From contig NC_010296.1 in assembly GCF_000010625.1 (NCBI RefSeq), positions 3,900,001-3,932,000 of the forward strand: a stretch of 32,000 nt of DNA. The letters run 5' to 3'. The translations under genes were made by a program, and so were the position numbers. This DNA is from Microcystis aeruginosa NIES-843 (GTDB lineage: Bacteria > Cyanobacteriota > Cyanobacteriia > Cyanobacteriales > Microcystaceae). The stretch's first letter is position 1. Each line of letters opens with the position of its first letter. Shown in pieces: positions 1,949 to 29,690 of the stretch. Below the pieces are notes generated by a model. The model saw only the letters and a program-made list of their open reading frames with translations. It made no database searches and was not told the origin of the DNA.

Positions 1949-2049
1949 ACAGGGGTTACAATGGGACAATAAGGGTGATTTACCGATAAAAACCTCTTTG
2001 GTTTTGGTATCTTCCTTTTGTTTTGCATTGAGTTCTCCTACAACAGCAG

Positions 2050-2075
2050 CCTCGGACATTAACCGAGGTTTTTTC
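2050..2075 (+). terminator. Rho-independent terminator downstream of the S8 peptidase gene
   Basis: CCTCGG-acattaa-CCGAGG stem-loop followed by TTTTTT. Confidence 0.6.
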
Positions 2076-7328: not shown

Positions 7329-7348
7329 TTCTTGACCCCAAATTTGGT
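7170..7348 (+). ncRNA. Predicted omegaRNA (reRNA) of type-1 copy 1: scaffold over the tnpB 3' end and RE, plus a ~20-nt flank-derived guide
   Basis: Inferred from established TnpB biology. The RE hairpin and the conserved tip GAGGATGTCAA end at about 7328. The guide would be 7329..7348. The 5' end cannot be determined from sequence. Confidence 0.4.
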
Positions 7349-7520
7349 CTAAATGTTGACGCTCCCCGCTCTAAAGAGACGGGGATTCTTCGTTCATTGA
7401 GTCTCCGTTAGCAAGCAGGATTTCTCCAACCAACCAAGAGGGAATCTCTCCCCCCCCCCTTGCCCTACCCGACGTCGGGGGGGTTGGGGGGGGTTGCGTG
7501 CGCCCCACGCTACTTAATCC
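7335..7520 (-). ncRNA. Predicted omegaRNA of type-2 element (scaffold interrupted by a GC-rich palindromic insert)
   Basis: Hairpin CCCCG(T)CTC-TTTA-GAGCGGGG plus tip AGCGTCAAC. The guide would be the complement of 7335..7354. The 5' end is uncertain. Confidence 0.35.
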
Positions 7521-8745
7521 CTTTTGCAAGATGTTTAAAGCGGCGTTTCTGTCTCGACAATCTGTGTATCCACAATGAGGACAAACATGGGTTCGAGTAG
7601 ATAGCGACTTTTGGACTTTTTGTCCACAATTAGAACAATTTTGAGACGTATTATGAGGTGAGACAGCTATAGTTAACTTGCCGTATTTGTCCCCAAAATA
7701 CTCTAGCCATTGCCTAAAAACAGACCATCCTGCATCGGTTATCGACTTGGCTAAATGACGATTTTTGACCATGCCTTTGATATTCAAGTTTTCATAGACG
7801 ATTAAGTCGTTAGACTTAACTAAACGGAGTGCCACACTTTTGACAAACTCTTCTCGTTGCCTACTTACTCTTAAATGTTTCCGAGCATATCGCTTTCTAG
7901 CTTTGTGATAATTACGAGATTGTTTTTTACCCTTACGGTATTTCTTTGACTTTTTTTTGTTTAATCGGTTTAGTTGTTTTTCAGCTTTTCGATAGTAGTT
8001 CGGACAATCAATTTGATGGCCTTCGCTATCTACTAAGAAAAACTTTAATCCGACATCAATCCCAGTGGCTTTCTGGGAAGGTGTTAAAGGCTTAACCGTG
8101 TCTCTGGGGTCTAATTTAAGGCAAAACTGCACATAATAACCATCGGCACGATTCAGGATTCTTACCCGTTTAATCTGGTCTGGTTGATAGTAATTAATAT
8201 CTCTAGAACCAATCAACTTAAGAGTGCCAATACCTTTTTTATCTGTAAAGGTAATATGGCGTTTATCTTTTGATAGCTTCCATCCAGATACTTTATACTC
8301 AACAGAACGGGAATGTTTTTTAAACTTAGGGTAGCCTTTCTTTCCTTTAACTTTATTTTGGCAATTATCGTAAAACCGAGTAATTGCCCGCAAGGTTCTT
8401 TCTACGGCAGTCTGGCAAGCATGGGAGTTTAAATCATCAACAAATTTAAACTCTTTCCTTAATGCTGTGTTGTACCGAAATAACTCTGTTTTGCCAACAC
8501 CCTGATTATCCATCCAATAACGCAGGACTTTATTCCGAACAAATTGGGTTGTCCGTATTGCCTCATTAATGGCTTCTATCTGATTAGGTTTTGGCTTAAC
8601 TTTGTATTCTAGTACAAACATTTTGACATTGCTCGATCGAGTATCAATATCTTAACACAAAATTCCTTAAGTTGACACGGCCCCCTGCCAACCGCCTGCT
8701 GCCTTTGTTGACGTGAGCCAAGAGGGATGCAAGGGATTGTCAATT
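7355..8745 (-). mobile_element. IS200/IS605-family TnpB-only element, type 2, copy with apparently truncated LE
   Basis: The RE tip GGGGAGCGTCAAC (complement of 7355..7367) is homologous to the tip of the element at 29539..30981. The LE-side similarity (TTGACAATCC) runs into the stop of the gene at 8745. The distal GGGATGAAA-hairpin part of the LE seen in the other copies is missing. Confidence 0.7.
7371..8621 (-). CDS. tnpB: TnpB-family protein, type 2
   Basis: 416 aa. TGIDVGLK, VYENLNIKGM and CRDRNAALNI RuvC motifs. CSNCG..CPHCG Zn ribbon. About two-thirds identical by eye to the ORF at 29577..30785. The C-terminal ~45 codons overlap the predicted omegaRNA and a GC-rich insert and may not be a conserved peptide. 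Confidence 0.88.
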   Translation of the reverse strand: MFVLEYKVKPKPNQIEAINEAIRTTQFVRNKVLRYWMDNQGVGKTELFRYNTALRKEFKFVDDLNSHACQTAVERTLRAITRFYDNCQNKVKGKKGYPKFKKHSRSVEYKVSGWKLSKDKRHITFTDKKGIGTLKLIGSRDINYYQPDQIKRVRILNRADGYYVQFCLKLDPRDTVKPLTPSQKATGIDVGLKFFLVDSEGHQIDCPNYYRKAEKQLNRLNKKKSKKYRKGKKQSRNYHKARKRYARKHLRVSRQREEFVKSVALRLVKSNDLIVYENLNIKGMVKNRHLAKSITDAGWSVFRQWLEYFGDKYGKLTIAVSPHNTSQNCSNCGQKVQKSLSTRTHVCPHCGYTDCRDRNAALNILQKGLSSVGRTQPPPTPPTSGRARGGGEIPSWLVGEILLANGDSMNEESPSL

Positions 8746-8999
8746 TAATCATATTTAATCTTAAAATAGAGAATTGTCCCCGCTAAGATAAAAGTAACAA
8801 AATTAGCGACGATAATCGGTTTGCTGCTCATATAAATCCCGTAGATGAGCCAGAGAAAAACCCCCAGACAAAAGCAAATAAACATAGTTAGGGACAAGTC
8901 CTTAGCGGAACGATAACGCCAAGTTTTCATCACTTGGGGTAAAAAAGAGACAGTGGTTAATATTCCCGCCACGATCCCGATTAGTTCAATAATATTCAC
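8745..8999 (-). CDS. SemiSWEET / PQ-loop family small sugar-transporter-like membrane protein
   Basis: 84 aa, three predicted TM helices, and the LPQVMKTW PQ-loop motif. Size and pattern match bacterial SemiSWEETs. Confidence 0.8.
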   Translation of the reverse strand: MNIIELIGIVAGILTTVSFLPQVMKTWRYRSAKDLSLTMFICFCLGVFLWLIYGIYMSSKPIIVANFVTFILAGTILYFKIKYD

Positions 9000-9126
9000 C
9001 GCTTATCCTCTTGGCTTAGTTTCTCTCATTTTAAACTGTTGACTATCTAAATTACGCCTGAAGACGGCTCTCTCGACATCATGGGGGTAAAGTGTTCATA
9101 AATGTGACATTTTTTCCCCATTGTTG

Positions 9127-9756: not shown

Positions 9757-11221
9757 AATGTCGGATGAATGCCCCCGCTAAATTTTTCGACAAGACATCA
9801 ACCTTTGCGGGGGATGAAATCCGACCAAGATATTAACTGCGAAGCACGATTTTAATTCTACCATTTGTAGGTAAACTGTGTTATACTTAATTTACCCAGG
9901 GTCGAGTATTAATCAATGCTAGTCGTAGAAGCGAAGCTAAAAAACGGGACACCAGAGCAATATCACCGGCTTGATGAAGCTATCAAAACTTCTCAGTTTG
10001 TGCGTAACTCTTGTGTTCGTTATTGGCGGTCCAATAAGGGGACAACCCGTAATGATCTCCAAAAACTTTGTGCGGTACTAGCTAACAATAAAGAGACACC
10101 TTATGTTAATAAATTAAACTCTCAAGCTCGTCAATCGGCTGCTGATAGAGCCTGGCAATCAATTAGTCGATTTTATCATAATTGTCGTGCCAATATATCA
10201 GGGAAAAAAGGTTTTCCTCGGTTCAAAAAGCATAGCCGTTCGGTTGAATACAAACTAACGGGCTACCAACTATCAGATAATCGACGTAAAATCAGATTTA
10301 CTGACGGTTTTAAAGCAGGAGAATTTGATTTATGGTGTAGTCAAAAGACATTAGTTTATTATTCAGAACAACAGATTAAACGGGTAAGAGTTGTTAGACG
10401 TGCTGACGGTTATTGTTGTCAGTTTTTGATTGACCTAGAACGGCAAGAATACCATAAACCAACGGGACAAATAACAGGAATTGACTTAGGGTTAAAGGAA
10501 TTTTATACCGACGCTCAAGGCAATACCGTAGAAAATCCACGTTATTTAAGCAAGTCAGAAAAACGACTGAAAAAAGCACAAAGGAGATTATCAAAACGAT
10601 TTCGTCAAGGAAAGAAACAGTCTAAAAACTATCACAAGCAACGGATAAAAGTTGCCAAGCTTCATCTTAAAGTATCAAGACAACGTAAAGACAAAGCAAT
10701 TAAAGATGCTTTGGCGTTAGTCCAGTCTAATGATCTGGTAGTTTATGAAGCTTTAAAGGTAAGAAACTTAGTCAAAAACCATAAGCTGTCTAAGTCGATT
10801 TCTGATGCTTCTTGGTATCAATTCACTGAATGGTTGAATTATTTTGCCAAGATTTATCGGATTGTCTGTGTTGCTGTTCCTCCCCATTTCACGACTCAAG
10901 ATTGTTCAGTTTGTGGGACGAGAGTTCAAAAAACATTAAGCACTAGAACTCATCAATGTCCCAATTGTCAAACAGTCTTGGATAGGGATCATAATGCAGC
11001 AATAAATATTCTTAAAAAAGGGTTACAATATTTGGGAAATCATCTCAACGGTACTGTTGGGCAAACAGAAACCGACCCAAACGCCTTGGGAGAGTCCGAC
11101 CTCTGGGTTTTCAGTGGAGACATTGAGAATCTAAGCTGTCTCGTTGAACAAGGAATTTCTAACAGCGATGTGGAAAGAATCCCCCGTCACAGCGTAGCTT
11201 GACGGTGGGAGTATGTCAAAC
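9757..11221 (+). mobile_element. IS200/IS605-family TnpB-only element, type 3
   Basis: The LE (AATGTCGG...CCCCCGC..GCGGGGGATGAAATCCGACC...GCGAAGCACGA) is homologous to the LE of the element at 29539..30981. The RE ends in GGGAGTATGTCAAAC (11207..11221). Confidence 0.75.
9916..11202 (+). CDS. tnpB: TnpB-family protein, type 3
   Basis: 428 aa. TGIDLGLK, VYEALKV and LDRDHNAAINI motifs. CSVCG..CPNCQ Zn ribbon. N-terminal EAIKTSQFVRNSCVRYW is shared with type 2. Confidence 0.88.
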   Translation: MLVVEAKLKNGTPEQYHRLDEAIKTSQFVRNSCVRYWRSNKGTTRNDLQKLCAVLANNKETPYVNKLNSQARQSAADRAWQSISRFYHNCRANISGKKGFPRFKKHSRSVEYKLTGYQLSDNRRKIRFTDGFKAGEFDLWCSQKTLVYYSEQQIKRVRVVRRADGYCCQFLIDLERQEYHKPTGQITGIDLGLKEFYTDAQGNTVENPRYLSKSEKRLKKAQRRLSKRFRQGKKQSKNYHKQRIKVAKLHLKVSRQRKDKAIKDALALVQSNDLVVYEALKVRNLVKNHKLSKSISDASWYQFTEWLNYFAKIYRIVCVAVPPHFTTQDCSVCGTRVQKTLSTRTHQCPNCQTVLDRDHNAAINILKKGLQYLGNHLNGTVGQTETDPNALGESDLWVFSGDIENLSCLVEQGISNSDVERIPRHSVA

Positions 11222-11241: not shown

Positions 11242-11412
11242 AACTTTTGTAACTTTGACATCCTCACCGCCGTAAACGGACGGCGATTCCCAAACCTCAC
11301 GATTTGGGTTTCTGCTTCTTTCCCGAAGGATTTTTCGCACCTGCCTTAACAGATTTACTCTGTTCTGGTCTTATGGTCGCTCTACAGACTGACACCGCAA
11401 GCCCTGCGGCCA
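11234..11412 (-). ncRNA. Predicted omegaRNA of type-1 copy 2
   Basis: Same reasoning as copy 1. The guide would be the complement of 11234..11253. Confidence 0.4.
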
Positions 11413-12574
11413 AAATATTTTTACTAGCGTTAACATCTCGGTCATGGTGTGTCCCACAGTCTGGACAATCCCATTCTCGAACATTTAACGGCATCTTTTC
11501 GACAATATGCCCGCAATTACTACACCTTTTAGAGCTAGGAAACCATCTATCTATTTCGATGTAATTTCTCCCATACCAACGGCATTTATAGGCTAATTGT
11601 CGGGTGATTTCACCCCAGCTTACATCAGATATTGCCTGAGATAATTTCGGGTTTTTGACCATATTCTTAACGGCTAAATTCTCAACCACAATCGTTTGGT
11701 TTTCACGAACTAATTGAGTGGTTAGCTTGTGTAAATGGTCTTTCCTGCTATCGGTGATTTGAGCGTGAATTTTGGCTAATTTGATTCTTGCCTTTTCTCG
11801 ATTCTTTGAGCCTTTCTGTTTTCTAGAAAGATTTTTTTGTGCTTTTCGCAGTCTCCGATAATGCTTGTTAAAATGCTTGGGATTAGATACTTTATCGCCA
11901 TTGCTAGTAATCACGAGGCTACTAATTCCTAAGTCAATTCCGATGGCTTTATCTGTTACTGGTAATGGCTTAATCGTTGGGTCATCAAATCTAATTGAAA
12001 TATGCCAACGTCCAGAAGGATGTAATCTGACCGTTACTGTACTTGGTTCACAGCTTTCTGGTATTTGTCTTGACCATCGAATAGGTAAAGGTTCTGTGCA
12101 TTTGGCTAAATAGATTTGTTTGTCTTTAAATTTAAAAGCAGATTTGGTAAATTCGGCACTTCCTCCCTGATGTTTTTTCTTAAAGTTAGGATACTTAGTA
12201 CGACCAGCAAAGAAATTAGTAAAAGCTGTTTGTAGGTGTCTTAACCCTTGTTGTAAAGGTACACAGCTAACTTCGTTTAAAAAGTCTAATTCTTCTTGCT
12301 TTTTCCAATCGGTCAACATTGAAGAAGTTTGAGCGTAGCCTACTCTTTCTTGCTTTTCGTACCAAGCTTGTGTTCTGACATGGAGAGCTTTGTTGTAAAC
12401 TAATCTTACACAGCCCAATGTGCGCCGCAATAGCGACTCTTGTTCTGGTGTGGGGTAAAATCGGTAAGAATAGGCTTTTTCCATATCTCGCATTTTAGCA
12501 TATATTTCGTAAATGTGCTAATATTTAACGGTAAAGCCGTCGTAGAACGACGGGGTTTCAGACCCAAATTTTCG
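11254..12574 (-). mobile_element. IS200/IS605-family TnpB-only element, type 1, copy 2 (inverted relative to copy 1)
   Basis: Same LE and RE as 6006..7328. LE hairpin CCGTCG-TTCTA-CGACGG (complement of 12537..12553). The RE tip is GTGAGGATGTCAAA. Confidence 0.85.
11297..12484 (-). CDS. tnpB: TnpB, intact, type 1 copy 2
   Basis: The start is set at MEKAYSYRF (12484) by comparison with copy 1, where the upstream ATG is followed by a stop. There are 11 aa differences from copy 1. All RuvC and Zn motifs are retained. Confidence 0.9.
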   Translation of the reverse strand: MEKAYSYRFYPTPEQESLLRRTLGCVRLVYNKALHVRTQAWYEKQERVGYAQTSSMLTDWKKQEELDFLNEVSCVPLQQGLRHLQTAFTNFFAGRTKYPNFKKKHQGGSAEFTKSAFKFKDKQIYLAKCTEPLPIRWSRQIPESCEPSTVTVRLHPSGRWHISIRFDDPTIKPLPVTDKAIGIDLGISSLVITSNGDKVSNPKHFNKHYRRLRKAQKNLSRKQKGSKNREKARIKLAKIHAQITDSRKDHLHKLTTQLVRENQTIVVENLAVKNMVKNPKLSQAISDVSWGEITRQLAYKCRWYGRNYIEIDRWFPSSKRCSNCGHIVEKMPLNVREWDCPDCGTHHDRDVNASKNILAAGLAVSVCRATIRPEQSKSVKAGAKNPSGKKQKPKS

Positions 12575-15640: not shown

Positions 15641-16195
15641 TTTACCCATTTTCAGGTGGTCAATTACCTAATTTTCAGGGAAAAAATCCCTAAATTTTCC
15701 CCCCAATCACTCCAATGGTAGGCACTTTTTCAGGGAAAAAAAGTCTAAAAGCTTTATCCAACAAGGTTTTTAGATTTATTCAGCAAACCCTACTTAGTCG
15801 AAAACGCTGTAACCAAATAAAAAACCTCGGTGTCCAGCCGAGGTAGCGCTAAGTTATGTAGGAGAACTCAAGCAAATCTGTCAATGGGGCAAACCCAAAC
15901 CCCGAAAACTTTTTTAAGCTAGTCAGCCCAGTTTTTCACCGTTGTCTCGGACTAAGGGAATCATATTTTGTCTGATACTCCCCGAAACAATCTGAACTGG
16001 CTTGGTGTCTTGGCTGTTTTGCTTTAACTTTTAGCTCATGTAAATAAATGTAACAATATTTTTACGAATTGTAAAGAAGAATTGACAAAATAAAACTTAT
16101 ATGTAACATAAGCTAAGTTAATATTTTTCGCCGATCGAAGCTAGGGGGGTAATAATAGAGAGATTGGTTCACTAGCGTGACAAGGTGTACCCAGA

Positions 16196-16627
16196 ATGTC
16201 CTATTTGTTTTTGTTCCCACTATTCACCGCTGCCTTGGCTGCCTATTTCTGGCAGCAGTCCAGCGATGAGATCGCTTATCTGGCCAGTGCCGCCACGGTA
16301 ATTAGTTTAGTGTTGAGTCTGGTTTTAGCTCCTTGGCAGATTCAGCTATTAATTCTCTTGACAGTTGTGATTGTCGTCACCTTTTTATGGCAAGGACGAG
16401 AAGAGCAGAAGAATGTCCCCGTCCCCACTCCAGAAACCGCCGGCGAGAAAAAGTACCGTGGGGCCACCTATATCGAGCCAACAGTCACCGAGGCTCCTGT
16501 CAAGGAGCGAGGAGGTAAATATCGCGGTGCGGAGGTTAAAATCACCAATAATCCCACGGTGGCTAACCCAATTCGCTCCTCATCTCTCAAATATCGCGGC
16601 GCTGGTTCAGCAAACAAGGACCAGTAA
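16196..16627 (+). CDS. Membrane protein with three KYRGA repeats (DUF4278-like)
   Basis: 143 aa. Two N-terminal TM helices, then KKYRGATY, GKYRGAEV and LKYRGAGS repeats reminiscent of the YRG motif of cyanobacterial DUF4278. Confidence 0.65.
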   Translation: MSYLFLFPLFTAALAAYFWQQSSDEIAYLASAATVISLVLSLVLAPWQIQLLILLTVVIVVTFLWQGREEQKNVPVPTPETAGEKKYRGATYIEPTVTEAPVKERGGKYRGAEVKITNNPTVANPIRSSSLKYRGAGSANKDQ

Positions 16628-16680
16628 TCAGTTATCAGTTATCAGTTATCAGTTATCAGTTATCAGTTATCAGTTATCAG
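16628..16680. repeat. Heptamer STRR array (TCAGTTA)x7.5, starting at the stop codon of the preceding gene
   Basis: Read directly. Followed by GATTTGAGTTTTAAGTG. An inverted copy of the array plus tail lies at 20766..20823. Confidence 0.95.
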
Positions 16681-16708
16681 ATTTGAGTTTTAAGTGAGTA
16701 GTATTAAA

Positions 16709-16918
<210 letters not shown>

Positions 16919-16986
16919 GAAGTTTCCTACTGTCTTTTCACTGTTTACTGTTTATTGTTCACTGTTCACTGAAACTTCCCACCTAT

Positions 16987-18480
16987 CTACTGGTCTTGAA
17001 TATAAGGCTGATTATTTTTGATACAATTGTATGCCTTTTGTAACTCGATTCCCAGATAACCGATATGTTCGGGAATAATTGCGGGATTGGTAGCGGCAAG
17101 CTCGCGGATTAATTTGAGGGGATTTTTGCCTTGATAACAAGCGACAACTTCCCCGCTGCCGGGGGTAGTTTGTTGGACAAGAATTTGTTCTTTTTCCACA
17201 GAAATCAAAAAGTTACCGCTAGGGTCAAAAAAATCGCGCTGATTGACAATTTTATCGTACTGGGTGGCGATTAATCGTTCGACATTCTCCCAAGTATCAT
17301 CGTATATATGGGCCGATTGACTAATAGTAATCAATGGACCCAAGGTTAAATTATACTGGGAGCGTTGATTGATTTCTTGGCAAATATGTTGCTGTAAAGC
17401 GCGCAATCCCATGGCATTTGCCGGCCAAGCGGCAAACATATCATTACTTCTAAATATTGCGGTGAGAGATAATTCATTTTCCACCACTCGCACCCAAATA
17501 TGATTTAAACAGGGACTACCTCCCTTTTCGTGGTCTTTCACATCCCAGAGGGACATAACTGCACTGGCTGCGTCAATTTCTGAGATTAATTTATTAATAA
17601 CCTGTGCAATTTGGTCTCGGCCAAACCAAGAGCGCAATCTTTGACCGTAGGTGTATTTAACTCCTTGGTGTATAGGGGAATCATCGAGAATTTGTCCGAT
17701 ATATTCGGTGAGAAAAGCTCTATCTATAGGCAAATAATTAGGTTCAGGAAAATAAAAGTCTGGGGGTTCATTGGTGACAACGGCCATTAAGTCAATTAAT
17801 TCTTGCCATTTACCATCATATCCTGTCGGTCTAATTGTGCCGGTGGTTTTAATCTTTTGGAGAATTTTTACCCAAGTTTCGGCAATAGTTTTTCCTTCAA
17901 TCCGATGACCGTATCTTGTCCCGGGTAGCAAAGAAGGAAGATTTTCTGAGATAGGAAAGGTTAATGGTTTTCCCCAAGTTGGTAAGGGGGATTGTTTTGC
18001 ATAATTTTTGACAGTTTCAATCGCTTCTGGGATGGATTTAACTGGTTGATATTGAATTGATTGACGCAATTTTTCGAGAATTTCTCGGTCAATTTCTTTG
18101 TCAATATATCCAGTGGTAGAAGAATTAATTAGCCAACATTCTTTACCTGTGTCACTTTTTCCTAACTGGAATCCTTGACTAAAAAAATCTAGCAAACATT
18201 GACAGCTACCGGAGTTCTTATCTTCCTTAGTTGCGTTGAGAATAACTAAGTATCTAACGTGGGGATTTGCTATTAAGTTTCTCAGCAGGGGACTAATTCC
18301 TCTGGTGGGACTATAAAGATTACCAATCACCGCGTATTGGTCGGGATTTAAATGTTTAGCAAGGGACTGTTTTACTGTCCATCCCGTGATAATTGCTGTT
18401 TGGCCGTGACCGCAGATTAATTGATTGGGTTTATAGTGGGGTTGGTAGGTGAATTTAGGGGTGGTTTCTGTACTAAGCAT
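16987..18480 (-). CDS. Three-domain fusion: MtrA-like N-terminal domain, thymidylate-synthase (ThyA)-like core, DUF4346-like C-terminus
   Basis: 497 aa. N-terminal ..AVIGNLYSPTRGISPLLRNLIANPHVRYLVIL.. resembles MtrA. The core carries YGQRLRSW, DQIAQVINKL, SPCL, FRSND, WPANAMG and AHIY, which align by eye to ThyA motifs. The tail reads FFDPSGNFLISV..HIGYLGIELQKAY..YIQDQ. Confidence 0.7.
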   Translation of the reverse strand: MLSTETTPKFTYQPHYKPNQLICGHGQTAIITGWTVKQSLAKHLNPDQYAVIGNLYSPTRGISPLLRNLIANPHVRYLVILNATKEDKNSGSCQCLLDFFSQGFQLGKSDTGKECWLINSSTTGYIDKEIDREILEKLRQSIQYQPVKSIPEAIETVKNYAKQSPLPTWGKPLTFPISENLPSLLPGTRYGHRIEGKTIAETWVKILQKIKTTGTIRPTGYDGKWQELIDLMAVVTNEPPDFYFPEPNYLPIDRAFLTEYIGQILDDSPIHQGVKYTYGQRLRSWFGRDQIAQVINKLISEIDAASAVMSLWDVKDHEKGGSPCLNHIWVRVVENELSLTAIFRSNDMFAAWPANAMGLRALQQHICQEINQRSQYNLTLGPLITISQSAHIYDDTWENVERLIATQYDKIVNQRDFFDPSGNFLISVEKEQILVQQTTPGSGEVVACYQGKNPLKLIRELAATNPAIIPEHIGYLGIELQKAYNCIKNNQPYIQDQ

Positions 18481-18484
18481 GGAT

Positions 18485-19108
18485 TTAAATTAATCGTTCA
18501 AGATAATTAATAATATTTCGGTGAAGGTTTTCTATTGTATCACTACCATCCAGTTGTAAACAATTATCTTTATATTCTTTAAATATCTGGATAAACATTT
18601 GACGAACTTTCATTAATTTTTCTTGTTTTTCGTACACTTCTGTGATAGCTCTGTTTTTAATTCTTGCTAGAGAAATATCGGGAAGAACATCGATATAAAT
18701 AACTATATCTGGATTGGGAAAATGTTGATTTAACTGCCGCACAAAAGCCAATTCTTCGGGATTATTGCAATTGTAGGCCAGGGAAGAAAAATAATAACGA
18801 GTAGTGATAACGTGGGTTTGTTCTTGGTGAATAAGTTTAAAAACGCCATCGTGATCATTATATAAGTGATCATGGCGATCAGCTGCAAATAAATAGGCCA
18901 TTTGTCGGTCAAATTGATTTTGATCTTTGATAGAAATAAGATTAGTTTGCATTATTTCTCGAATCAAACGACCGATAACTCCCTCGGAAGGTTCCGGACT
19001 TAAAACTGCTTTTTCCCCTCGCTTTAAAAAATATTCTTGTAAGAGTTTTGCTTGGGTACTTGTTCCCGATCCATCAATACCTTCAAAGACAATAAATTTC
19101 GGTTTCAT
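18485..19108 (-). CDS. Divergent thymidylate (dTMP) kinase-family nucleoside-monophosphate kinase
   Basis: 207 aa. P-loop FIVFEGIDGSGTST, FAADRHDH and SSLAY motifs. TRY replaces the usual DRY, and SPEPSEG replaces TREPGGT. A 4-nt gap separates it from the downstream gene. Confidence 0.75.
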   Translation of the reverse strand: MKPKFIVFEGIDGSGTSTQAKLLQEYFLKRGEKAVLSPEPSEGVIGRLIREIMQTNLISIKDQNQFDRQMAYLFAADRHDHLYNDHDGVFKLIHQEQTHVITTRYYFSSLAYNCNNPEELAFVRQLNQHFPNPDIVIYIDVLPDISLARIKNRAITEVYEKQEKLMKVRQMFIQIFKEYKDNCLQLDGSDTIENLHRNIINYLERLI

Positions 19109-19133
19109 AATTTAATCTTCCTTCTCAATCTAA

Positions 19134-20519
19134 TTATCTGAATAATTGTTTTAGCCAAGTTAACCAAGATTTTTTCGGGGGGATTAATTGCGTCATTTCT
19201 CCGATAATCTCTCCCATACTTCCCCAAGCATAAATATTTTTATTGAGGGATTGTATGGTTAAATTTTCTTGGAAAGCTAAACTGATAATACTAATCATTT
19301 CCTCTGCTTGATTACCGACTATTTGCGCTCCCAGTATTTTACCATCTTGTCGGTAGATTAATTGACAAAATCCCGTGGTTTCCCCCCAGATTTGCTGTGG
19401 GACCATATTTTTAATTGGATAGTTGATCATCTTTACCTCCTCACCATAGCTGTCCTGAGCTGCTTTTCCAGTTAAACCCACCCAAGCAATAGCAGGATCA
19501 AAAGCAATAAATGAGGGAATTTGCTCGGGATTAAAGTTAAATTTTTCTCCCGTGAGCAGATGCTTGACTAACCCAAAAGCAGCCCGGTGATTTAAAGTAG
19601 GATCGGGATAATTATTTCTGAGCAAATTTAGGGCATAAATGCGGGAATTATCGGTTTGGAATTGCTGATTAACCCTAATTAATCCCTCCTCTAGTTTAAC
19701 TCCCACCCCGGCCAAATTTAATCCCTGTTCATTGACTTGATAATTACCGGCAAAAATGAGATCATCAACTTCGATAACACGATTGCCTAATTGTAACCAT
19801 TTTTGACCCTCGATCGCTTTCACTTGACTAGGACAATAGCCTGGTAAAATCTTAATTCCTTCCGCTTCTAAAATGGCAGTAACTAAATGGGAGATTTCCC
19901 GATCAATATCCGGCAGTAGATAATTATCCTCGATAATTAAGCTAATTTCTTTCCCCAAACGTCGGAGAATTTGCGCTAAACTCACAGCCATGCTGCTGTT
20001 GCCAATAATCGCTAAATGTTGTCCCAACTTGTCTAAATTTGGCCCTTGCCAAAGGGTTTGAGCGGTAAAATAATTAACCTCATCTAAGCCGAAAATTTTC
20101 GGGACTTGCAGATAAAAACCCGTGGCGATAAGATAGTGTTTAGCCAACAATTGCCGACCATTAACCACAAATCCTAAATGGGGCAACCGAACAAATTCCC
20201 CCCCACCCGGGATAACATCTATTCCTTCCGTGGCTAATCTCGCTAAAGAATGATGTTTATTAATAGTTTTATCTACTTCCTCTAACCATTGCCGCAACCG
20301 TTGCCATTGGGGATAAATGGCCGTTTCTTGCCAATGATTCAGCAGTTTATAGAGATGGATAATTTGGCTGTAGCCCTTGCTAAAAATGTCCTCAGATGCC
20401 TCTAAATTGCCGCTATAAGGCTGTTGCACTAAAGCCACCCTTTTTTTGAGGTGAACAGCCAACAAAGCCGCTTCTATCCCCGTAGGAGTGGCACCAATAA
20501 TTACTAAGTCGTAAACCAC
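19134..20519 (-). CDS. Class-I pyridine-nucleotide-disulfide oxidoreductase homolog lacking redox-active and cofactor motifs
   Basis: 461 aa with Lpd/MerA/GR-like layout (N-terminal DLVIIGATPTG, central LAIIGNSSMAV, dimerisation-domain GFCQLIY..ILGAQIVGNQAEE). There is no CxxxxC. IYALNLL replaces IYAxGD, and WGSMGE replaces HPxxxE. Confidence 0.7.
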   Translation of the reverse strand: MVYDLVIIGATPTGIEAALLAVHLKKRVALVQQPYSGNLEASEDIFSKGYSQIIHLYKLLNHWQETAIYPQWQRLRQWLEEVDKTINKHHSLARLATEGIDVIPGGGEFVRLPHLGFVVNGRQLLAKHYLIATGFYLQVPKIFGLDEVNYFTAQTLWQGPNLDKLGQHLAIIGNSSMAVSLAQILRRLGKEISLIIEDNYLLPDIDREISHLVTAILEAEGIKILPGYCPSQVKAIEGQKWLQLGNRVIEVDDLIFAGNYQVNEQGLNLAGVGVKLEEGLIRVNQQFQTDNSRIYALNLLRNNYPDPTLNHRAAFGLVKHLLTGEKFNFNPEQIPSFIAFDPAIAWVGLTGKAAQDSYGEEVKMINYPIKNMVPQQIWGETTGFCQLIYRQDGKILGAQIVGNQAEEMISIISLAFQENLTIQSLNKNIYAWGSMGEIIGEMTQLIPPKKSWLTWLKQLFR

Positions 20520-20530
20520 AAATATAAAGT

Positions 20531-20636
20531 AGGAGTCAGGAGACAGGAGTCAGGAGACAGTATTCAGGAGTCAGGAGACAGTATTCAGGAATCAGGAGAC
20601 AGTATTCAGGAATCAGGAGACAGTATTCAGGAATCG
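20531..20636. repeat. Compound STRR array (AGGAGTC/AGGAGAC units, then a 21-nt CAGGAGACAGTATTCAGGAAT unit x4)
   Basis: Read directly. The 21-mer is three related heptamers. Confidence 0.9.
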
Positions 20637-20781
20637 GAAACTTAACACTTAAGTAGGGAGGCACAATTATTTGTAGGATGGGTTAGCGGTAGCGTAACAT
20701 AATCGGGCGTTGGGTTTCATGCTTCAACCCAACCTACGTTCATCTTATATTTAATTCCACCCACCCACTTAAAACTCAAAT

Positions 20782-20823
20782 CTGATAACTGATAACTGAT
20801 TACTGATAACTGATAACTGATTA
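20782..20823. repeat. Heptamer STRR array (CTGATAA/CTGATTA)x6, ending on the hisIE stop codon
   Basis: Reverse complement of the 16628..16680 array. Preceded by CACTTAAAACTCAAATC (the inverted tail). Confidence 0.95.
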
Positions 20824-21456
20824 CCGGCGCCGGTCTTGCAGTTTTTTATAGACATCTCGCAGGGGGACTTGATGATGGGCGAGAGCGACGAGGGTATGAT
20901 AAAAAAGATCGGCCACTTCTGAGGCAATAGCATCGCCATCATTATCTTTGCAGGCCATGACCACTTCTGCCGATTCTTCGCCGATTTTCTTGAGAATTTT
21001 GTTATCTCCCCCGGCCAAAAGTTTACAGGTGTAGGATTCCGGATGAGGATCGTCTCTGCGATCGCAAATTACCTTAAACAATTCCGAGAGGGTGTCGGCC
21101 GCTGGCGGTGATTTTTGCCAATTTACCTGGTGAAAACAGCTTCTTTCGCCGGTATGACAGGCGATATCACCGATTTGCTCAATAGTCAGCAATATCGCAT
21201 CACTATCGCAATCGTAGCGAATTTGACGCACCTTTTGGATATGGCCAGAAGTAGCGCCCTTGTGCCATAATTCTTGACGAGAACGACTCCAATACCACGC
21301 TTCCCCAGTGGTGAGGGTTTTTTCGAGGGATTCCCGATTCATCCAGGCCATCATTAACACTGTAGCATCAAGATAGTCTTGAGCGATCGCCGGTACTAAA
21401 CCCTGGGGATTATAAGCGATCGCGTCGAGGGGAATAGCGGAGAGTAAAGAGGACAT
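20821..21456 (-). CDS. hisIE: Bifunctional phosphoribosyl-AMP cyclohydrolase / phosphoribosyl-ATP pyrophosphatase
   Basis: 211 aa. HisI part: [34 protein letters not shown]. HisE part: [32 protein letters not shown]. Confidence 0.92.
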
Positions 21457-23951: not shown

Positions 23952-26127
23952 TATAGCCCACATTCCGCACCCTCAACTGTCACATAATACCAAATTTCTA
24001 AATCCATGACAGACATCCACGCTCGAATGCTTGCCAAGCCGGTGTTCGTTGTGACGCGAATAAAGAAAAATGGTGTAAGCTGTCCCCCTCCAGAGACTTG
24101 AGTAAAAATACCTAGCTGGTGAAGGTTTTCTCGGTGGCCGCTAGGGGGGTCTTGAGACCCCTAATTATGAAAAAATAGGAATTGTTGGAAAACTGAGGCG
24201 AGTGGACTGTTCGACCATGAATCAATCAACAGAAATTGAAGTCAAAAATCTAGACCATCTGGGATTAGTAGCCGGAATTATCGATGAAATAGGAATCGTT
24301 GAAATTATCAACGAACAAGTCTCAATTGAGCGAGGAGAAATTGTCACAGCGGGGCAAGTAGTGAAAGCAATTATCCTGAATGGATTGGGATTTGTCTCCC
24401 GAGCCTTGTATTTATTTCCTCAATTTTTTGAAGATAAAGCAACCGAACATCTGCTGGGAGAGGGCATCGAACCCAAGCACTTGAATGATGATAAAATTGG
24501 TCGAGTAATGGACAAACTTTATCAACTGGATGTTTCGGGTATTTTCCTACTCATCAGTTTAGCCGCCGTGAAAAAATTTGGTGTAGCAACCGAGAACTCC
24601 CATTTAGATTCGACTTCTCTATCAGTAGAAGGAGAATATAAAAAGGAATACCCAACAGTAGAAATCCTGAAATCAGGAGCAGTGGGAGAAGAAATTGAAA
24701 CCAGACAACAGCCAATAAAAATTACCTACGGATACTCCCGCGACCGAAGACCTGACTTAAAACAATTTATGATTGACTTAATCGTAAGTGGGGATGGAGA
24801 TGTACCTTTATTCCTGAAAGTAGGGGACGGAAATGAAGCGGACAAAGCGGTTTTTGGTCAAATCGCCCGAGAATTTAAAAAACAAGTTGACTTTGACAGT
24901 TTAATAGTCGGCGATAGCGCCCTCTATAGCAAAGAGAATTTAAAACTAATGAAAGAAATGCGTTGGTTGTCTCGAGTACCATTAAGCATTAAAGAGGCTC
25001 AAGAGTTGGTTGATAGCATCTCAGAAAAAGAGTTAACCGATTCAGAAATACCGGGTTATTCCTGGCGGGAAACCATCTCTAACTATGGGGGGATAGAACA
25101 AAGATGGTTGCTAGTTGAAAGTCAAGCTAGACAAGAATCAGACTTGAAAAAATTAGAGAAAAAAATCGAGCAGGAAAAGAATTCTGCCCAAGAAAAAATC
25201 CGGCAACTATCCCGAAGAGAATTTGAGAATAGAGCGGTGGCGTTGGCGATAGCCAAAGGATTATCTGACTCCTTAAAATCTCATCAGTTAACGGAGATTA
25301 AAGTCAATCTCATTCCGCCTGAGTCCCAGGGGTCAAAACTCAAATCAAAAGACGATTTACCCTCTCAAAGCTATCAAGTTCAAGCCAAATTAGAGTTGAA
25401 TTTGACCGCCATTGAGAGGCTAAAGAAACGAGCAGGACGATTCGTTTTAGCAACTAACGATTTGGAGAAACAACGATTAAGCAGTGAGGATATACTCAAA
25501 AAATATAAAGGGCAACAAGCTCCGGAAAGAGGATTTTCTTTTCTCAAAGACCCCTGCTTTTTTGCCCACAGTGTCTTTCTCAAATCTCCCCATAGAATCG
25601 AGGTCATGGCCATGCTCATGGGCTTGTGCCTGCTGGTTTATACTATTGGTCAAAGACAACTTCGTTTAAGTTTAAAACAGCAGGAGACGGGACTGAAAAA
25701 TCCGTTGGGTAAGTTAACTGACCGACCGACGTTACGCTGGATATTTCAGTGCTTTCAAGGGATTCATCTCGTCCGTATTCAAGACAATCAAAAGATTAGC
25801 AACTTAACGGATGAGAGGCGCAACATTTTGAGATTTTTTCCCAAACCTTGCCAGGAATATTATCTCTTATCTTGACCAGATGGATTGACTTCAAGGGGTG
25901 ACAAAACAAAGCGAGCAACTGGAACATCTCCCCCTAGATGTTAAGTCTGATTGCCTAGTCATTCTCAACAAGCACTGTTTATTGAGAATGACCGGGGGAA
26001 CTCTGAAATTTTCGGCTTAGTTGCCGGCAGCTTGCCGCCAACTCACTCCTCTAGATAAGTATTTTGACTCACGCCCCTTCCTCTTTTGAGACGTTGTGAC
26101 ACTTAGGGTGCGGAATGTGGGTTATAG
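23952..26127 (+). mobile_element. IS4-superfamily (IS1634-like) insertion sequence
   Basis: Imperfect terminal inverted repeats TATAGCCCACATTCCGCACCCT (23953..) and AGGGTGCGGAATGTGGGTTATAG (..26127) flank a single transposase gene. I could not identify a target-site duplication. Confidence 0.8.
24202..25875 (+). CDS. IS1634/IS4-family DDE transposase
   Basis: 557 aa. N-terminal LDHLGLVAGIIDEIGIVEIIN (DUF4277-like), YGYSRDRRPDLKQF, GDSALYS, and a C-terminal YKGQQAPERGFSFLK (YREK-like) motif. The start may be the ATG at 24217. Confidence 0.88.
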   Translation: MDCSTMNQSTEIEVKNLDHLGLVAGIIDEIGIVEIINEQVSIERGEIVTAGQVVKAIILNGLGFVSRALYLFPQFFEDKATEHLLGEGIEPKHLNDDKIGRVMDKLYQLDVSGIFLLISLAAVKKFGVATENSHLDSTSLSVEGEYKKEYPTVEILKSGAVGEEIETRQQPIKITYGYSRDRRPDLKQFMIDLIVSGDGDVPLFLKVGDGNEADKAVFGQIAREFKKQVDFDSLIVGDSALYSKENLKLMKEMRWLSRVPLSIKEAQELVDSISEKELTDSEIPGYSWRETISNYGGIEQRWLLVESQARQESDLKKLEKKIEQEKNSAQEKIRQLSRREFENRAVALAIAKGLSDSLKSHQLTEIKVNLIPPESQGSKLKSKDDLPSQSYQVQAKLELNLTAIERLKKRAGRFVLATNDLEKQRLSSEDILKKYKGQQAPERGFSFLKDPCFFAHSVFLKSPHRIEVMAMLMGLCLLVYTIGQRQLRLSLKQQETGLKNPLGKLTDRPTLRWIFQCFQGIHLVRIQDNQKISNLTDERRNILRFFPKPCQEYYLLS

Positions 26128-27233: not shown

Positions 27234-27845
27234 ATGAATACCCTCATCACTATTCGAGAAGCTTCCGATTTACTCGGAGTTAGCATTAAAACCCTCCGGC
27301 GCTGGGAACAACAGGGTAAAATTGTCTCAATTCGTACCCGCGGCGGTCATCGCCGATTTCGACCGGAAGATCTCTTACAATCTGGTCAAGCAACCCCATT
27401 GATTATTGGCTATGCTCGTGTTAATCGACCTGAACAAAAACCCCAATTAGACACCCAGATAAAAGCGTTAGAAGAATTTTGCCATCAGCAGGGTCAACCC
27501 TTTGAAATTCTCACCGATATCGGCGACGGAGTCAGCCACAATCACCCTAATTTTATGCGTCTAGTGAAGATGATTTGTCAGGGTGAGGTGAAATCTCTAG
27601 TTTTAACCCATGCGGAAACTATTAGTCTCTTTTGTCATGATTTTATTTTGGGTTTGTGCCGTCTCTTCAAAATCCAAGTCATTATCCTCAATCAAACCCA
27701 GGAATCCATTGCAGATGAAGATTTAGTGGACGATCTGCAAGCCCTCATCACCATCTGTTACGATCATCTCTACCCACTACATAACCCGGCTCATCAGCAA
27801 TTACTAGAATACCTAGGGGCGTTTAAGGATGTCCGTGTGGCTTAA
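27234..27845 (+). CDS. MerR-type HTH + resolvase-fold protein (IS607 TnpA-like) lacking catalytic Ser/Arg residues
   Basis: 203 aa. The N-terminal IREASDLLGVSIKTLRRWEQQGKI..RTRGGHRRF is MerR/excisionase-like. GYARVNRPEQKPQLDTQI aligns with IS607 YARVSSxxQKxDLxRQ with Ser changed to Asn. THAETISLF sits where DRLxRF is expected. Confidence 0.7.
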   Translation: MNTLITIREASDLLGVSIKTLRRWEQQGKIVSIRTRGGHRRFRPEDLLQSGQATPLIIGYARVNRPEQKPQLDTQIKALEEFCHQQGQPFEILTDIGDGVSHNHPNFMRLVKMICQGEVKSLVLTHAETISLFCHDFILGLCRLFKIQVIILNQTQESIADEDLVDDLQALITICYDHLYPLHNPAHQQLLEYLGAFKDVRVA

Positions 27846-28127: not shown

Positions 28128-29144
28128 ATGAAACTAGAAACCACGGCGATTAAACGGATTCTCGATGCTAACCTTGACCGCGCCAGAGAAGGACTGCGAA
28201 TTATCGAAGAATGGTGTCGTTTTGGCTTAGATAATCCCGATTTAGCCCAAGAATGTAAGGAAATGCGCCATCAATTAGCTAGTTGGCACTCGATCGATCT
28301 TAAACGACATCGGGACACGGCCGGCGATATCGGCAGGGATTTAAGCCATCCGAGGGAAGAAATCCGGGAGACTGTCGAGGGACTGCTGCAGGCCAATCTC
28401 GCTCGCGTACAGGAGGCTTTTAGGGTTTTAGAAGAATACGGTAAACTCTATGATCTGGAGCTAGGGATAGCCTGTAAACAGCTGCGCTATCGGGTTTATC
28501 AGCTAGAGAGTAAACTATTAATCTCGCCACCTCTGGAAAAACTGCAAGCATCTCCCCTCTATCTAGTCACTTCTCCTGCCGAAAATCTGCTAGAAATCGT
28601 CGAATTAGCCCTAAAAGGGGGGTTAAAATTGGTGCAGTACCGCCATAAAACCGCCGCTGATACCATTCGTTTAGAAGAAGCCGCTAAACTGTGTGAGTTA
28701 TGCCACCGTTACGATGCTTTGTTTATTATGAACGATCGCGTCGATATTGCTCAGGCCATTCATGCCGATGGTGTTCATCTCGGTCAACAGGATGTACCGA
28801 TTTCCCTAGCGCGGCAATTTCTCGGCCCAACGGCAATTATCGGCCGGTCCACCACTAATCCCCAAGAGATGGCCAAAGCAATCCAAGAAAAGGCCGATTA
28901 TGTGGGAGTCGGGCCGGTTTATGCCACCCCCACCAAAGCAGGAAAAACCCCGGCAGGATTGGAATATGTCCGTTATGCGCGGGAAAATTGCCCTTTACCC
29001 TGGTTTGCGATCGGTGGTATTGATAGTAGTAACATTAAAGAGGTTTTAGAGGCAGGAGCGCAACAGGTAGCTGTAGTCCGGGCCATCATGGAAGCGCAGC
29101 ACCCCGATGTGGTGACACAACAATTATTAGACCAATTAAAGTAG
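28128..29144 (+). CDS. thiE: Thiamine-phosphate synthase with ~125-aa N-terminal extension
   Basis: 338 aa. ThiE motifs LYLVT, VQYRHK, NDRVDIA, DGVHLGQQD, IGRSTT, ADYVGVGPVYATPTK, FAIGGI. Confidence 0.9.
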   Translation: MKLETTAIKRILDANLDRAREGLRIIEEWCRFGLDNPDLAQECKEMRHQLASWHSIDLKRHRDTAGDIGRDLSHPREEIRETVEGLLQANLARVQEAFRVLEEYGKLYDLELGIACKQLRYRVYQLESKLLISPPLEKLQASPLYLVTSPAENLLEIVELALKGGLKLVQYRHKTAADTIRLEEAAKLCELCHRYDALFIMNDRVDIAQAIHADGVHLGQQDVPISLARQFLGPTAIIGRSTTNPQEMAKAIQEKADYVGVGPVYATPTKAGKTPAGLEYVRYARENCPLPWFAIGGIDSSNIKEVLEAGAQQVAVVRAIMEAQHPDVVTQQLLDQLK

Positions 29145-29543: not shown

Positions 29544-29690
29544 CACTCCCATCGCTAAAAGCGAGGGATTCTTGGTTCACTGAGTTTCCTTAATCTGGCA
29601 GGACGTATCCAACCAAACCAGAGGGAATCTCTCCCCAAGCGTATTAGTTTCCGTGTGTCCCACGGTACTTAGTCCCTTTTTGAGAATGTT
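29519..29690 (-). ncRNA. Predicted omegaRNA of the type-2 element; the guide would be antisense to the last codons of thiS
   Basis: Hairpin CCCTCGC-TTTTA-GCGA(T)GGG plus tip AGTGTCAAC. The guide would be the complement of about 29519..29538. The 5' end is uncertain. Confidence 0.35.

Follow-up and report, generated by a model that had tools for sequence, protein, structure and literature searches.

A three-domain homologue of thymidylate synthase and its lysine-less thymidylate kinase-like neighbour in Microcystis aeruginosa NIES-843

Thymidylate synthesis is an essential process targeted by drugs, and to our knowledge only two classes of thymidylate synthase (TS), ThyA and ThyX, are recognised. 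Here we analyzed a stretch of 32,000 nucleotides (nt) of Microcystis aeruginosa NIES-843 (contig NC_010296.1, positions 3,900,001 to 3,932,000 of the forward strand), which we refer to as the window. Three minus-strand open reading frames (ORFs) within it, encoding proteins 1, 2, and 3, are separated by gaps of only 4 nt (between 1 and 2) and 25 nt (between 2 and 3). Protein 1 (BAG04073) is a member of a large, ancient archaeal-type ThyA subfamily which is experimentally uncharacterised. This subfamily is annotated plainly as "thymidylate synthase" in hundreds of genomes, yet it has an unusual architecture and has lost most of the classical phosphate-binding arginines. We consider it probable, at roughly 65%, that protein 1 is the functional TS of the cell, converting deoxyuridine monophosphate (dUMP) to thymidine monophosphate (dTMP). 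This reading rests on the fold of the protein, residue conservation, linkage to genes of dUMP supply, deoxynucleoside triphosphate (dNTP) modules of phages, and the decay of thyX.

Several described systems bear on this locus. Among enzymes with the TS fold, the cytosine-specific MilA, BcmA, and T4 deoxycytidine monophosphate (dCMP) hydroxymethylase (dCH) have Asp at the position where TS and dUMP hydroxymethylase have Asn, and the ribose-specific MilA and BcmA carry Ala and Lys' where deoxy-specific enzymes carry Ser and Arg' (PMC5175136). A hydroxymethylase signature derived from T4 dCH consists of Asp or Glu three residues before the catalytic Cys together with Ser/Thr-x-Tyr (PMC6400193). 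In the corrinoid protein MtrA, the axial ligand of cobalamin is His84, which is held by Glu54 (PMC4915002). For 31 cyanobacteria, a COG table lists 23 with ThyX and 8 with ThyA (PMC5954106). Separately, at least some cyanobacteria with a TS of this subfamily have been reported to be without FolA. Finally, the gene order seen here was published in mBio in 2025 as a putative bacimethrin cluster, made up of genes for an ATP-binding cassette (ABC) protein, a hypothetical protein, TS, thymidylate kinase, a "mercuric reductase," HisIE, a glycosyl transferase, and ThiD2 (PMC12345177).

The three ORFs, their spacing, and the motif strings quoted in an initial annotation of this DNA were all present in the translations. 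That annotation had also proposed that protein 1 is a fusion of MtrA-like, TS, and DUF4346 parts, and on this point Pfam, NCBIfam, and structural models made with AlphaFold2 (AF2) and searched with Foldseek agree. Pfam matched Thymidylat_synt at residues 275 to 407 (8.8e-16) and PterinBD-DUF4346 (PF14251) at residues 419 to 496 (3.9e-20), with a weak, subthreshold match to MtrA (0.018). The best NCBIfam match of the core (residues 194 to 399) was TIGR03283, the archaeal-type TS, at 136 bits. When the full-length protein was modelled from a 63-sequence alignment, the predicted local distance difference test (pLDDT) reached 92 and the predicted template modelling (pTM) score 0.85. The top 50 matches of this model in the PDB were all TS, dCH, or MilA (E from 3e-11), with MilA ranking first by a negligible margin.

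Residues 1 to 170 modelled alone gave a pLDDT of 94.5, and the sole significant PDB matches of this N-terminal domain were the MtrA structures 5L8X, 5LAA, 9QTR, and 9QTS. The first three aligned at template modelling scores of 0.65 to 0.70 and E values of 1e-7 to 4e-6, and the next match had an E value of 0.02. Consistently, MtrA models score 56 to 93 bits on distant members of the family. However, the equivalents of His84 and Glu54 were missing in all 54 TS-fusion sequences, which read "LYS" with no His at this place; the genuine MtrA-like proteins P0437 and P0438 were the sole sequences in the alignment that keep the His and the Glu of a "TEN" motif. The MtrA meander consensus GAIPF-Y/F-x-EN could not be found in residues 100 to 130 of protein 1 either. 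Because the two residues are replaced family-wide, corrinoid binding is unlikely, and judging from the alignment this MtrA-fold domain almost certainly carries no corrinoid. The lack of a corrinoid-ligating His suspected in the initial annotation thus extends to the whole TS-fusion family, and we reject the idea of a corrinoid methyl-carrier domain on the loss of both ligand-site residues in every member.

In the DUF4346 part, conservation down to 24 to 30% identity is complete for H472 and complete or almost so for Y475, E479, and Q495. The combination of an MtrA-like domain with DUF4346 is also found in the NF002128 model (∼390 amino acids [aa], named "MtrA") and in proteins such as P0437, and DUF4346 is C-terminal in the TIGR00284 family, whose members resemble dihydropteroate synthase. 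Since the two domains recur together without a TS, the parts flanking the TS core look like one module, and their distribution suggests that it is associated with pterin-dependent enzymes. Our literature searches for DUF4346, for MJ0757, and for thymidylate synthase together with MtrA returned nothing relevant. Rippkaea orientalis PCC 8801 additionally has a stand-alone 77-aa DUF4346 gene (L001 7134-7367), located 660 nt upstream of its three-domain TS gene.

The active site of the TS core is well preserved. Its key residues are Y278, C324, R344, S345, D347, N355, H391, and Y393. The equivalents of Tyr94, Cys146, Arg166, Ser167, Asp169, and His207 (E. coli ThyA numbering) were present in all 62 family sequences, including the nucleophile Cys146 (C324) and the base Tyr94 (Y278). 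The equivalent of Asn177 (N355) was present in 61 of 62 and that of Ser167 (S345) in 62 of 62, and the Tyr209 position holds Tyr or Trp across the family. The nucleophilic Cys and the uracil-specifying Asn singled out in the initial annotation are therefore family features (62/62 and 61/62). An RSND..N motif was found in 85 of the 86 cellular loci and in all 80 viral loci. E. coli Glu58 falls into a gap of the local alignment with protein 1; the invariant E227 is its likely equivalent. Together, Asn355 and Ser345 give protein 1 the signature of an enzyme acting on uracil and deoxyribose. Conversely, the signature of CMP (cytidine monophosphate) hydroxymethylases, with Asp at the base site and Ala plus Lys' at the ribose site, is absent from protein 1, which has Ala305 at the ribose-site position where MilA and BcmA have Lys'. 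The metagenomic sequence P0423 is the sole family member with Asp in place of Asn at the base-specifying site (WPLDAYG), and we regard it as a candidate for a three-domain enzyme with cytosine specificity.

We observed strong linkage of this gene to genes that supply dUMP. In a sample of 80 GTDB cyanobacterial loci, a dCMP deaminase gene follows protein 1 directly downstream on the same strand in ∼65, with Dcd or Dcd-like genes and PF05014 genes often lying between. A query of the fetched loci with Nostoc ThyX revealed five Nostoc genomes that carry thyX ∼2 kb upstream of protein 1. Of these copies, two are intact, one is intact with an intein, one contains an inserted TGA codon, and one is frameshifted by a 4-nt duplication. 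The broken copies are those of Nostoc 210A and ChiQUE01b, each lesion coming from a single assembly, and the TGA-bearing gene, when read through, scores 165 bits against a thyX equivalog cutoff of 88. Protein 1, by comparison, was uninterrupted in all 86 loci. Co-occurrence of thyX with protein 1 and decay of thyX are what would be expected if protein 1 can supply dTMP, and the decay requires some other source of dTMP. A strict either/or relation between ThyX and protein 1, which the sum 23 + 8 = 31 in the COG table had suggested to us, was withdrawn in view of intact thyX beside protein 1 in three Nostoc loci. The intein, in ThyX of Nostoc sp. CHAB 5836 (L075 7253-8602), is 450 aa long, lies in frame within the conserved active-site motif, starts with Cys-Leu-Ala, and finishes with His-Asn, followed by Ser.

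Protein 1 has more than 1,300 homologues. The best 120 (68 to 94% identity) are all annotated as thymidylate synthase and cover Chroococcales, Nostocales, and Oscillatoriales; the closest genome match is a metagenome-assembled genome (MAG) of Microcystis, at 99%. An exhaustive search returned 2,097 clusters at the 50% identity level, of which 352 had E ≤ 1e-30. Down to ∼32% identity, homologues retain the full-length architecture, and distant three-domain members come from Patescibacteria and a Thermoprotei archaeon. Within Microcystis, the ratio of nonsynonymous to synonymous substitution rates (dN/dS) was 0.13 for protein 1, 0.21 each for proteins 2 and 3, and 0.09 for HisIE, with no internal stops. 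Protein 1 is a core cyanobacterial gene, showing ∼70% identity across orders and purifying selection. The repeat DNA around it, from which the initial annotation had suspected an accessory cassette, is real (as tandem repeat arrays), but the accessory status does not hold for a core gene with a dN/dS of 0.13.

The architecture is also carried by viruses. We found the full three-domain protein on more than 100 IMG/VR contigs (42 to 70% identity), and in 38 of the 80 viral loci that we fetched it is part of a block of RusA-like resolvase, TS, two ORFans, NrdA with an ATP cone, and NrdB, which is a typical dNTP-supply module. Phage contigs carrying it are ∼80 to 90 kb long, have a GC content of 0.36, and come from an uncultured lineage (e.g., L115, L105, L111, L116, and L127). 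Among 50,697 GenBank phage records, no three-domain protein was found; there, the TS core alone aligns, at a coverage of ≤43%. Additional TS-like paralogues were seen next to cellular three-domain genes. One of 568 aa, archaeal-type and more diverged, adjoins the gene in Aphanothece (L018 8028-9734). Another, of 317 aa and with Lys at the Arg126' position, lies beside the three-domain gene and a dCMP deaminase gene in a Patescibacteria genome (L084 7844-8797). This 317-aa Thymidylat_synt gene was considered as a canonical ThyA and rejected, being another archaeal-type paralogue, and is uninformative in that respect.

Protein 2 (BAG04074) scores 166.4 bits with the dTMP kinase model TIGR00041 (cutoff, 83.25) and aligns over its full length to solved Tmks, best to those of Thermotoga maritima and Aquifex aeolicus. 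However, the Walker-A lysine is replaced by Thr (residues 10 to 18, GIDGSGTST versus GIDGSGKST in T. maritima Tmk). The same GIDGSGTST is found in the orthologues of Gomphosphaeria, a Microcystaceae MAG, and an uncultured genome (L015, L016, and L048), whereas the Rippkaea orthologue (L001) reads GIDKAGKST and all solved Tmks shown have the Lys. Compared with solved Tmks, protein 2 further has PEP for REP, TRY for DRY (PRY in L016), and AYN for AYQ, the last change turning the base-contacting YQ of other Tmks into YN. The DRY, REP, and YQ positions are noncanonical in all six orthologues, with the Arg of DRY kept. The initial annotation was hence correct about a divergent Tmk, in which TRY and SPEPSEG are real, but ascribed to it the Tmk P-loop, having overlooked the Thr in place of the Walker-A lysine. 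The gene is maintained under purifying selection (dN/dS, 0.21). No canonical Tmk was found in the 1.49 Mb of loci fetched around protein 1 orthologues, and a literature search on Microcystis thymidylate kinase returned nothing on a second tmk. With an ATP site that has no Walker-A lysine, the activity of protein 2 is uncertain, and the missing lysine argues against an ordinary kinase. Nevertheless, Tmk, TS, and dCMP deaminase genes are contiguous in Gomphosphaeria, and such a run argues for a role of protein 2 in the dTTP pathway; its position next to TS would fit the following step, from dTMP to dTDP.

Protein 3 matches Pyr_redox_2 (5.7e-30) and Pyr_redox_dim (2.8e-20) in Pfam, is far below every NCBIfam cutoff, and aligns over its full length to structures of MerA (4YWO) and Lpd. 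We found no CxxxxC, no GxGxxG, no GD motif, and no C-terminal His in it, as the initial annotation had noticed in concluding that it is probably no disulfide reductase. CxxxxC, canonical GxGxxG, and the C-terminal His are absent from the whole cyanobacterial family (16 aligned members), and GD is kept in about half of these relatives, reduced to a bare Gly in some, and lost in the Microcystis clade (IYALNLL). The family is widespread in cyanobacteria under the name "dihydrolipoyl dehydrogenase family protein," with identities to protein 3 of 76 to 97% within Microcystis, then 49%, and then ∼37%. Protein 3 is maintained (dN/dS, 0.21) and, from its motifs, is probably nonredox and not a disulfide reductase. 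Its sole recurring neighbour is HisIE, which adjoins it in Microcystis and Pannus, the context varying elsewhere; in Pannus brasiliensis (L086 5218-7401), HisIE lies directly upstream of the protein 3 homologue. Protein 3 probably arrived together with HisIE, and nothing links its function to proteins 1 and 2 or to thymidylate metabolism.

Synteny speaks against a functional module of three genes as initially envisaged, the lack of a syntenic trio in related genomes being one of the observations that the initial annotation had named as refuting it. A Tmk gene adjoins TS only in Microcystis, Gomphosphaeria, one other Microcystaceae genome, and one uncultured genome, and is 2.9 kb away in Rippkaea. 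Outside Microcystis (93 to 95% identity), we found a protein 3 homologue ahead of Tmk in just two Microcystaceae relatives (37 to 39%), and protein 3 is tied to HisIE instead. The trio is a Microcystaceae-specific juxtaposition in a genome rich in insertion sequences (IS), although in Microcystis the three genes are probably cotranscribed, given their tight spacing.

If protein 1 makes dTMP, it would do so by hydride transfer from methylene-tetrahydrofolate (methylene-THF), with the MtrA-fold and DUF4346 domains helping to bind or position the pterin cofactor or substituting for the lost intersubunit arginines. A number of observations weigh against protein 1 being the TS of the cell. First, three of the four classical phosphate-binding arginines are gone in the cyanobacterial clade, with Arg166 (R344) alone retained. 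The Arg21 equivalent is Gly in 32 of 62 sequences (the cyanobacterial crown) and otherwise variable, with no Arg among the listed residues. The Arg126' equivalent is Ala in the crown and Arg or Lys in 24 of 62, and that of Arg127' is Ser in the crown and Arg in 23 of 62, in both cases mostly in deep branches; the loss of the arginine pair pointed out in the initial annotation is this Ala-Ser. Second, the TS-typical Leu three residues before the catalytic Cys (Cys-3) is Gly in protein 1, for which reason the chemistry of the last step can only be inferred. Third, protein 1 stays under the curated cutoff of every NCBIfam TS model (136 versus 174.55 bits for TIGR03283, 29 versus 108 for TIGR03284, and ≤45 versus ≥325 for the NF0024xx models). 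In addition, intact ThyX occurs alongside intact protein 1 in some Nostoc, so that the two are not strict alternatives, a second TS-like paralogue stands beside the protein 1 orthologue in one Patescibacteria genome, protein 2 is without the Walker-A Lys, and our literature search found no assay of any subfamily member and no paper on the subfamily.

The MtrA-fold and DUF4346 module might instead confer on protein 1 a cofactor chemistry unlike that of classical ThyA, for example, with the pterin held or recycled in cis, or with free methylene-THF replaced by another reductant or pterin, such that no separate dihydrofolate reductase (DHFR) of the FolA type would be needed; in Microcystaceae, the partner would possibly be a lysine-less, nonconventional Tmk. 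We regard this as unlikely. If true, it would establish a third mechanistic class of TS across cyanobacteria, Patescibacteria, some archaea, and phages.

It is somewhat less likely still that protein 1 is essential for a reaction other than dTMP synthesis, such as another pterin- or nucleotide-dependent one, dTMP being made by an unseen ThyX or ThyA encoded elsewhere. The subthreshold scores with all TS models, the lost phosphate-binding arginines, and the three Nostoc loci with both genes intact would fit such a function, as would a SEED table of 2007 that lists ThyX in Nostoc punctiforme, Anabaena variabilis, and Nostoc 7120. Against it, two genomes that retain protein 1 carry thyX copies broken by independent events, the dUMP-type catalytic residues are all conserved, and the gene occurs in linkage with those for dCMP deaminase, Dcd, and Tmk and, in phages, ribonucleotide reductase (RNR).

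The initial annotation had likened the locus to pyrimidine hypermodification in phages. In such a scheme, protein 1 would be a C1 transferase producing a C5-modified pyrimidine nucleotide (e.g., 5-hydroxymethyl-dUMP), protein 2 a dedicated kinase, and protein 3 a repurposed scaffold. Protein 2 is indeed altered at four substrate- or ATP-site positions, the Leu that shields the classical active site at Cys-3 is missing from the TS, a Thr adjoins the catalytic Tyr in protein 1, a PF05014 gene (DNPH1/MilB family) is a frequent neighbour in other cyanobacteria, and hydride transfer is not provable from sequence alone. However, the hydroxymethylase signature (PMC6400193) is absent from the protein 1 family. 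Among 63 sequences, the Cys-3 residue was G in 32, S in 13, N in 10, R in 6, A in 1, and D in 1, so that an acidic residue occurs in 1 of 63, and the residue at Tyr-2 was Tyr in 63 of 63. The cytosine signature is likewise lacking, the conserved partners of protein 1 are suppliers of dUMP, the trio is not conserved, and protein 1 is a core rather than an accessory gene. Furthermore, thyX decays alongside it, requiring another dTMP source, and the RNR modules of phages carry the three-domain TS with no glycosyl or other modification genes nearby. We therefore consider C5 modification very improbable and dTMP synthesis by protein 1 the better account of these data.

The published bacimethrin cluster, in which protein 1 would take the role of BcmA (CMP to 5-hydroxymethyl-CMP) with help from the "glycosyl transferase," ThiD2, and the ABC transporter, rests on annotation names and on a 7-fold induction of the TS gene in coculture by quantitative reverse transcription-PCR; bacimethrin and methoxythiamin were present in Microcystis cultures, and the gene order is common to four Microcystis genomes (PMC12345177). 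BcmA and MilA also share the TS fold, MilA heading the Foldseek matches if only marginally. Such a role is nonetheless the least credible of all, since protein 1 has the family-conserved Asn355 and Ser345 in place of the Asp and Ala/Lys' of BcmA and MilA (PMC5175136), the "glycosyl transferase" belongs to glycosyltransferase family 2 (PF00535) and not to the PF05014 N-glycosidases (BcmB/MilB), the 32-kb window holds no PF05014 gene and no methyltransferase (BcmC), the "ThiD2" gene encodes a ThiD2-ThiE fusion, lies 7.6 kb away behind transposase genes, and is on the opposite strand, HisIE is a histidine biosynthesis gene, protein 1 is ∼70% identical across cyanobacteria generally and adjoins dCMP deaminase, and a follow-up paper itself calls TS nondiagnostic (PMC12637900). 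The published cluster in Microcystis is probably misassigned, and the true biosynthetic genes of this allelopathic antivitamin therefore remain to be found.

The surroundings of the trio (Table 1) are typical of this organism. The heptamer arrays flanking it are of the short tandemly repeated repetitive (STRR) type. Five TnpB genes, a DDE transposase, and a serine recombinase within 32 kb explain the patchwork gene order, and the heptamer repeats and IS elements are ordinary intergenic content of Microcystis, not the boundary of a cassette. Scans of the locus for promoters and terminators gave matches no more frequent than in shuffled sequence, and no riboswitch was found upstream of the operon at Rfam gathering thresholds. 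On the plus strand, a DUF4278 protein with repeated KYRGA motifs is encoded at 16196-16627; its 3' end enters the CAGTTAT heptamer array, and a frame overlapping this gene end translates the array into repeats of the peptide QLSVISY. The cyanobacterial small RNA PsrR1 (RF02701; gathering score, 42) was matched at two places, 15820-15914 (minus strand; 65 bits) and 1987-2073 (plus strand; 48 bits), the stronger match having ABC transporter genes on one side and the DUF4278 gene on the other.

Table 1. Positions of the features discussed, numbered from the first letter of the window unless a Nostoc locus is named
Feature	Position	Strand	Evidence
Protein 1, 497 aa, three-domain thymidylate synthase homologue	16987..18480	-	ORF, Pfam, NCBIfam, AF2, Foldseek
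PterinBD-DUF4346 domain of protein 1, residues 419-496	16993..17226	-	Pfam PF14251
Archaeal-type thymidylate synthase core of protein 1, residues ~186-415	17236..17925	-	TIGR03283, conservation
MtrA-fold Rossmann-like domain of protein 1 without cobalamin ligands, residues 1-165	17986..18480	-	AF2, Foldseek
Protein 2, 207 aa, Tmk-family protein without Walker-A lysine	18485..19108	-	ORF, TIGR00041, alignment
Protein 3, 461 aa, GTG start, Lpd/MerA-fold	19134..20519	-	ORF, Pfam, family alignment
HisIE, histidine biosynthesis, same-strand upstream neighbour	20821..21456	-	Pfam PRA-CH + PRA-PH
Heptamer tandem repeats (CAGTTAT, GAGACAG, TTCACTG), downstream of protein 1	16622..16971	.	Tandem Repeats Finder (TRF)
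Heptamer and 21-mer tandem repeats between HisIE and protein 3	20531..20824	.	TRF
IS605-family OrfB/TnpB gene	6096-7283		
IS605-family OrfB/TnpB gene	7371-8621		
IS605-family OrfB/TnpB gene	9916-11202		
IS605-family OrfB/TnpB gene	11297-12493		
IS605-family OrfB/TnpB gene	29577-30785		
DDE transposase (DUF4277)	24202-25875		
MerR helix-turn-helix (HTH) serine recombinase	27234-27845		
ThiD2 + TMP-TENI (ThiE) fusion, thiamine-phosphate synthase gene	28128-29144	+	
thyX, Nostoc locus L070 (210A)	7346-8071		
thyX, Nostoc locus L071 (ChiQUE01b)	7335-8061		
thyX, Nostoc locus L075 (CHAB 5836)	6959-9040		
thyX, Nostoc locus L043	7752-8474		
thyX, Nostoc locus L033	7432-8154		

What appears to be new here is the MtrA-fold and DUF4346 module on a TS, the predicted binding of phosphate without three of the four classical arginines, and the Tmk homologue without its lysine, which is a small puzzle in its own right. 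Defining the role of the extra domains would clarify folate recycling in cyanobacterial DNA synthesis, and a function for DUF4346 could follow from it.

Compared with known systems, protein 3 shares with Lpd, MerA, and GR the fold of two dinucleotide-binding domains and a dimerisation domain, and differs from them in the missing CxxxxC, GxGxxG, GD, and C-terminal His. Protein 2 resembles dTMP kinase in its equivalog score and full-length alignment and departs from it at the Walker-A Lys and at REP, DRY, and YQ. For protein 1, the bifunctional DHFR-TS of protozoa and plants, in which an alpha/beta domain of nucleotide-binding type is joined by a linker to the N terminus of the TS core, is an architectural analogy only: the N-terminal domain of protein 1 has the MtrA fold, unlike the DHFR fold, and nothing indicates dihydrofolate reduction. 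MtrA, the corrinoid subunit of the methyltransferase that acts on methyl-tetrahydromethanopterin and coenzyme M, and its soluble homologues (5L8X and 5LAA) share their fold with the N-terminal 165 residues of protein 1, which has neither His84/Glu54 nor the meander motif nor a transmembrane helix. NF002128 proteins (e.g., P0437) and the TIGR00284 family have DUF4346 in common with protein 1, the former together with an MtrA-like domain; unlike protein 1, however, genuine MtrA-like plus DUF4346 proteins keep the His and Glu of the cobalamin site and have no TS core. BcmA, MilA, and T4 dCH share the TS fold, MilA and T4 dCH being among the top structural matches, whereas protein 1 has Asn instead of their Asp at the base site, Ser instead of the Ala of MilA and BcmA, and no Asp or Glu at Cys-3.

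The closest relatives of protein 1 are thymidylate synthases themselves. With classical ThyA (E. coli and Lactobacillus casei; EC 2.1.1.45), it shares the TS fold (Foldseek E ∼ 1e-10) and Tyr94, Cys146, Arg166, Ser167, Asp169, Asn177, His207, and Tyr209; it differs in having Gly for Arg21, Ala-Ser for Arg126'/Arg127', Leu for His147, and Gly for Leu143, in a core of ∼230 aa compared with 264, and in its two extra domains. The archaeal-type enzymes (TIGR03283, "thy_syn_methano") are, at ∼200 aa, without the N-terminal MtrA-fold domain and the DUF4346 of protein 1. Their similarity, assessed by profile, amounts to 136 bits for protein 1 and 167 bits for the Patescibacteria member P0413, and at the level of the profile they share with protein 1 the shortened TS core and the catalytic residues.

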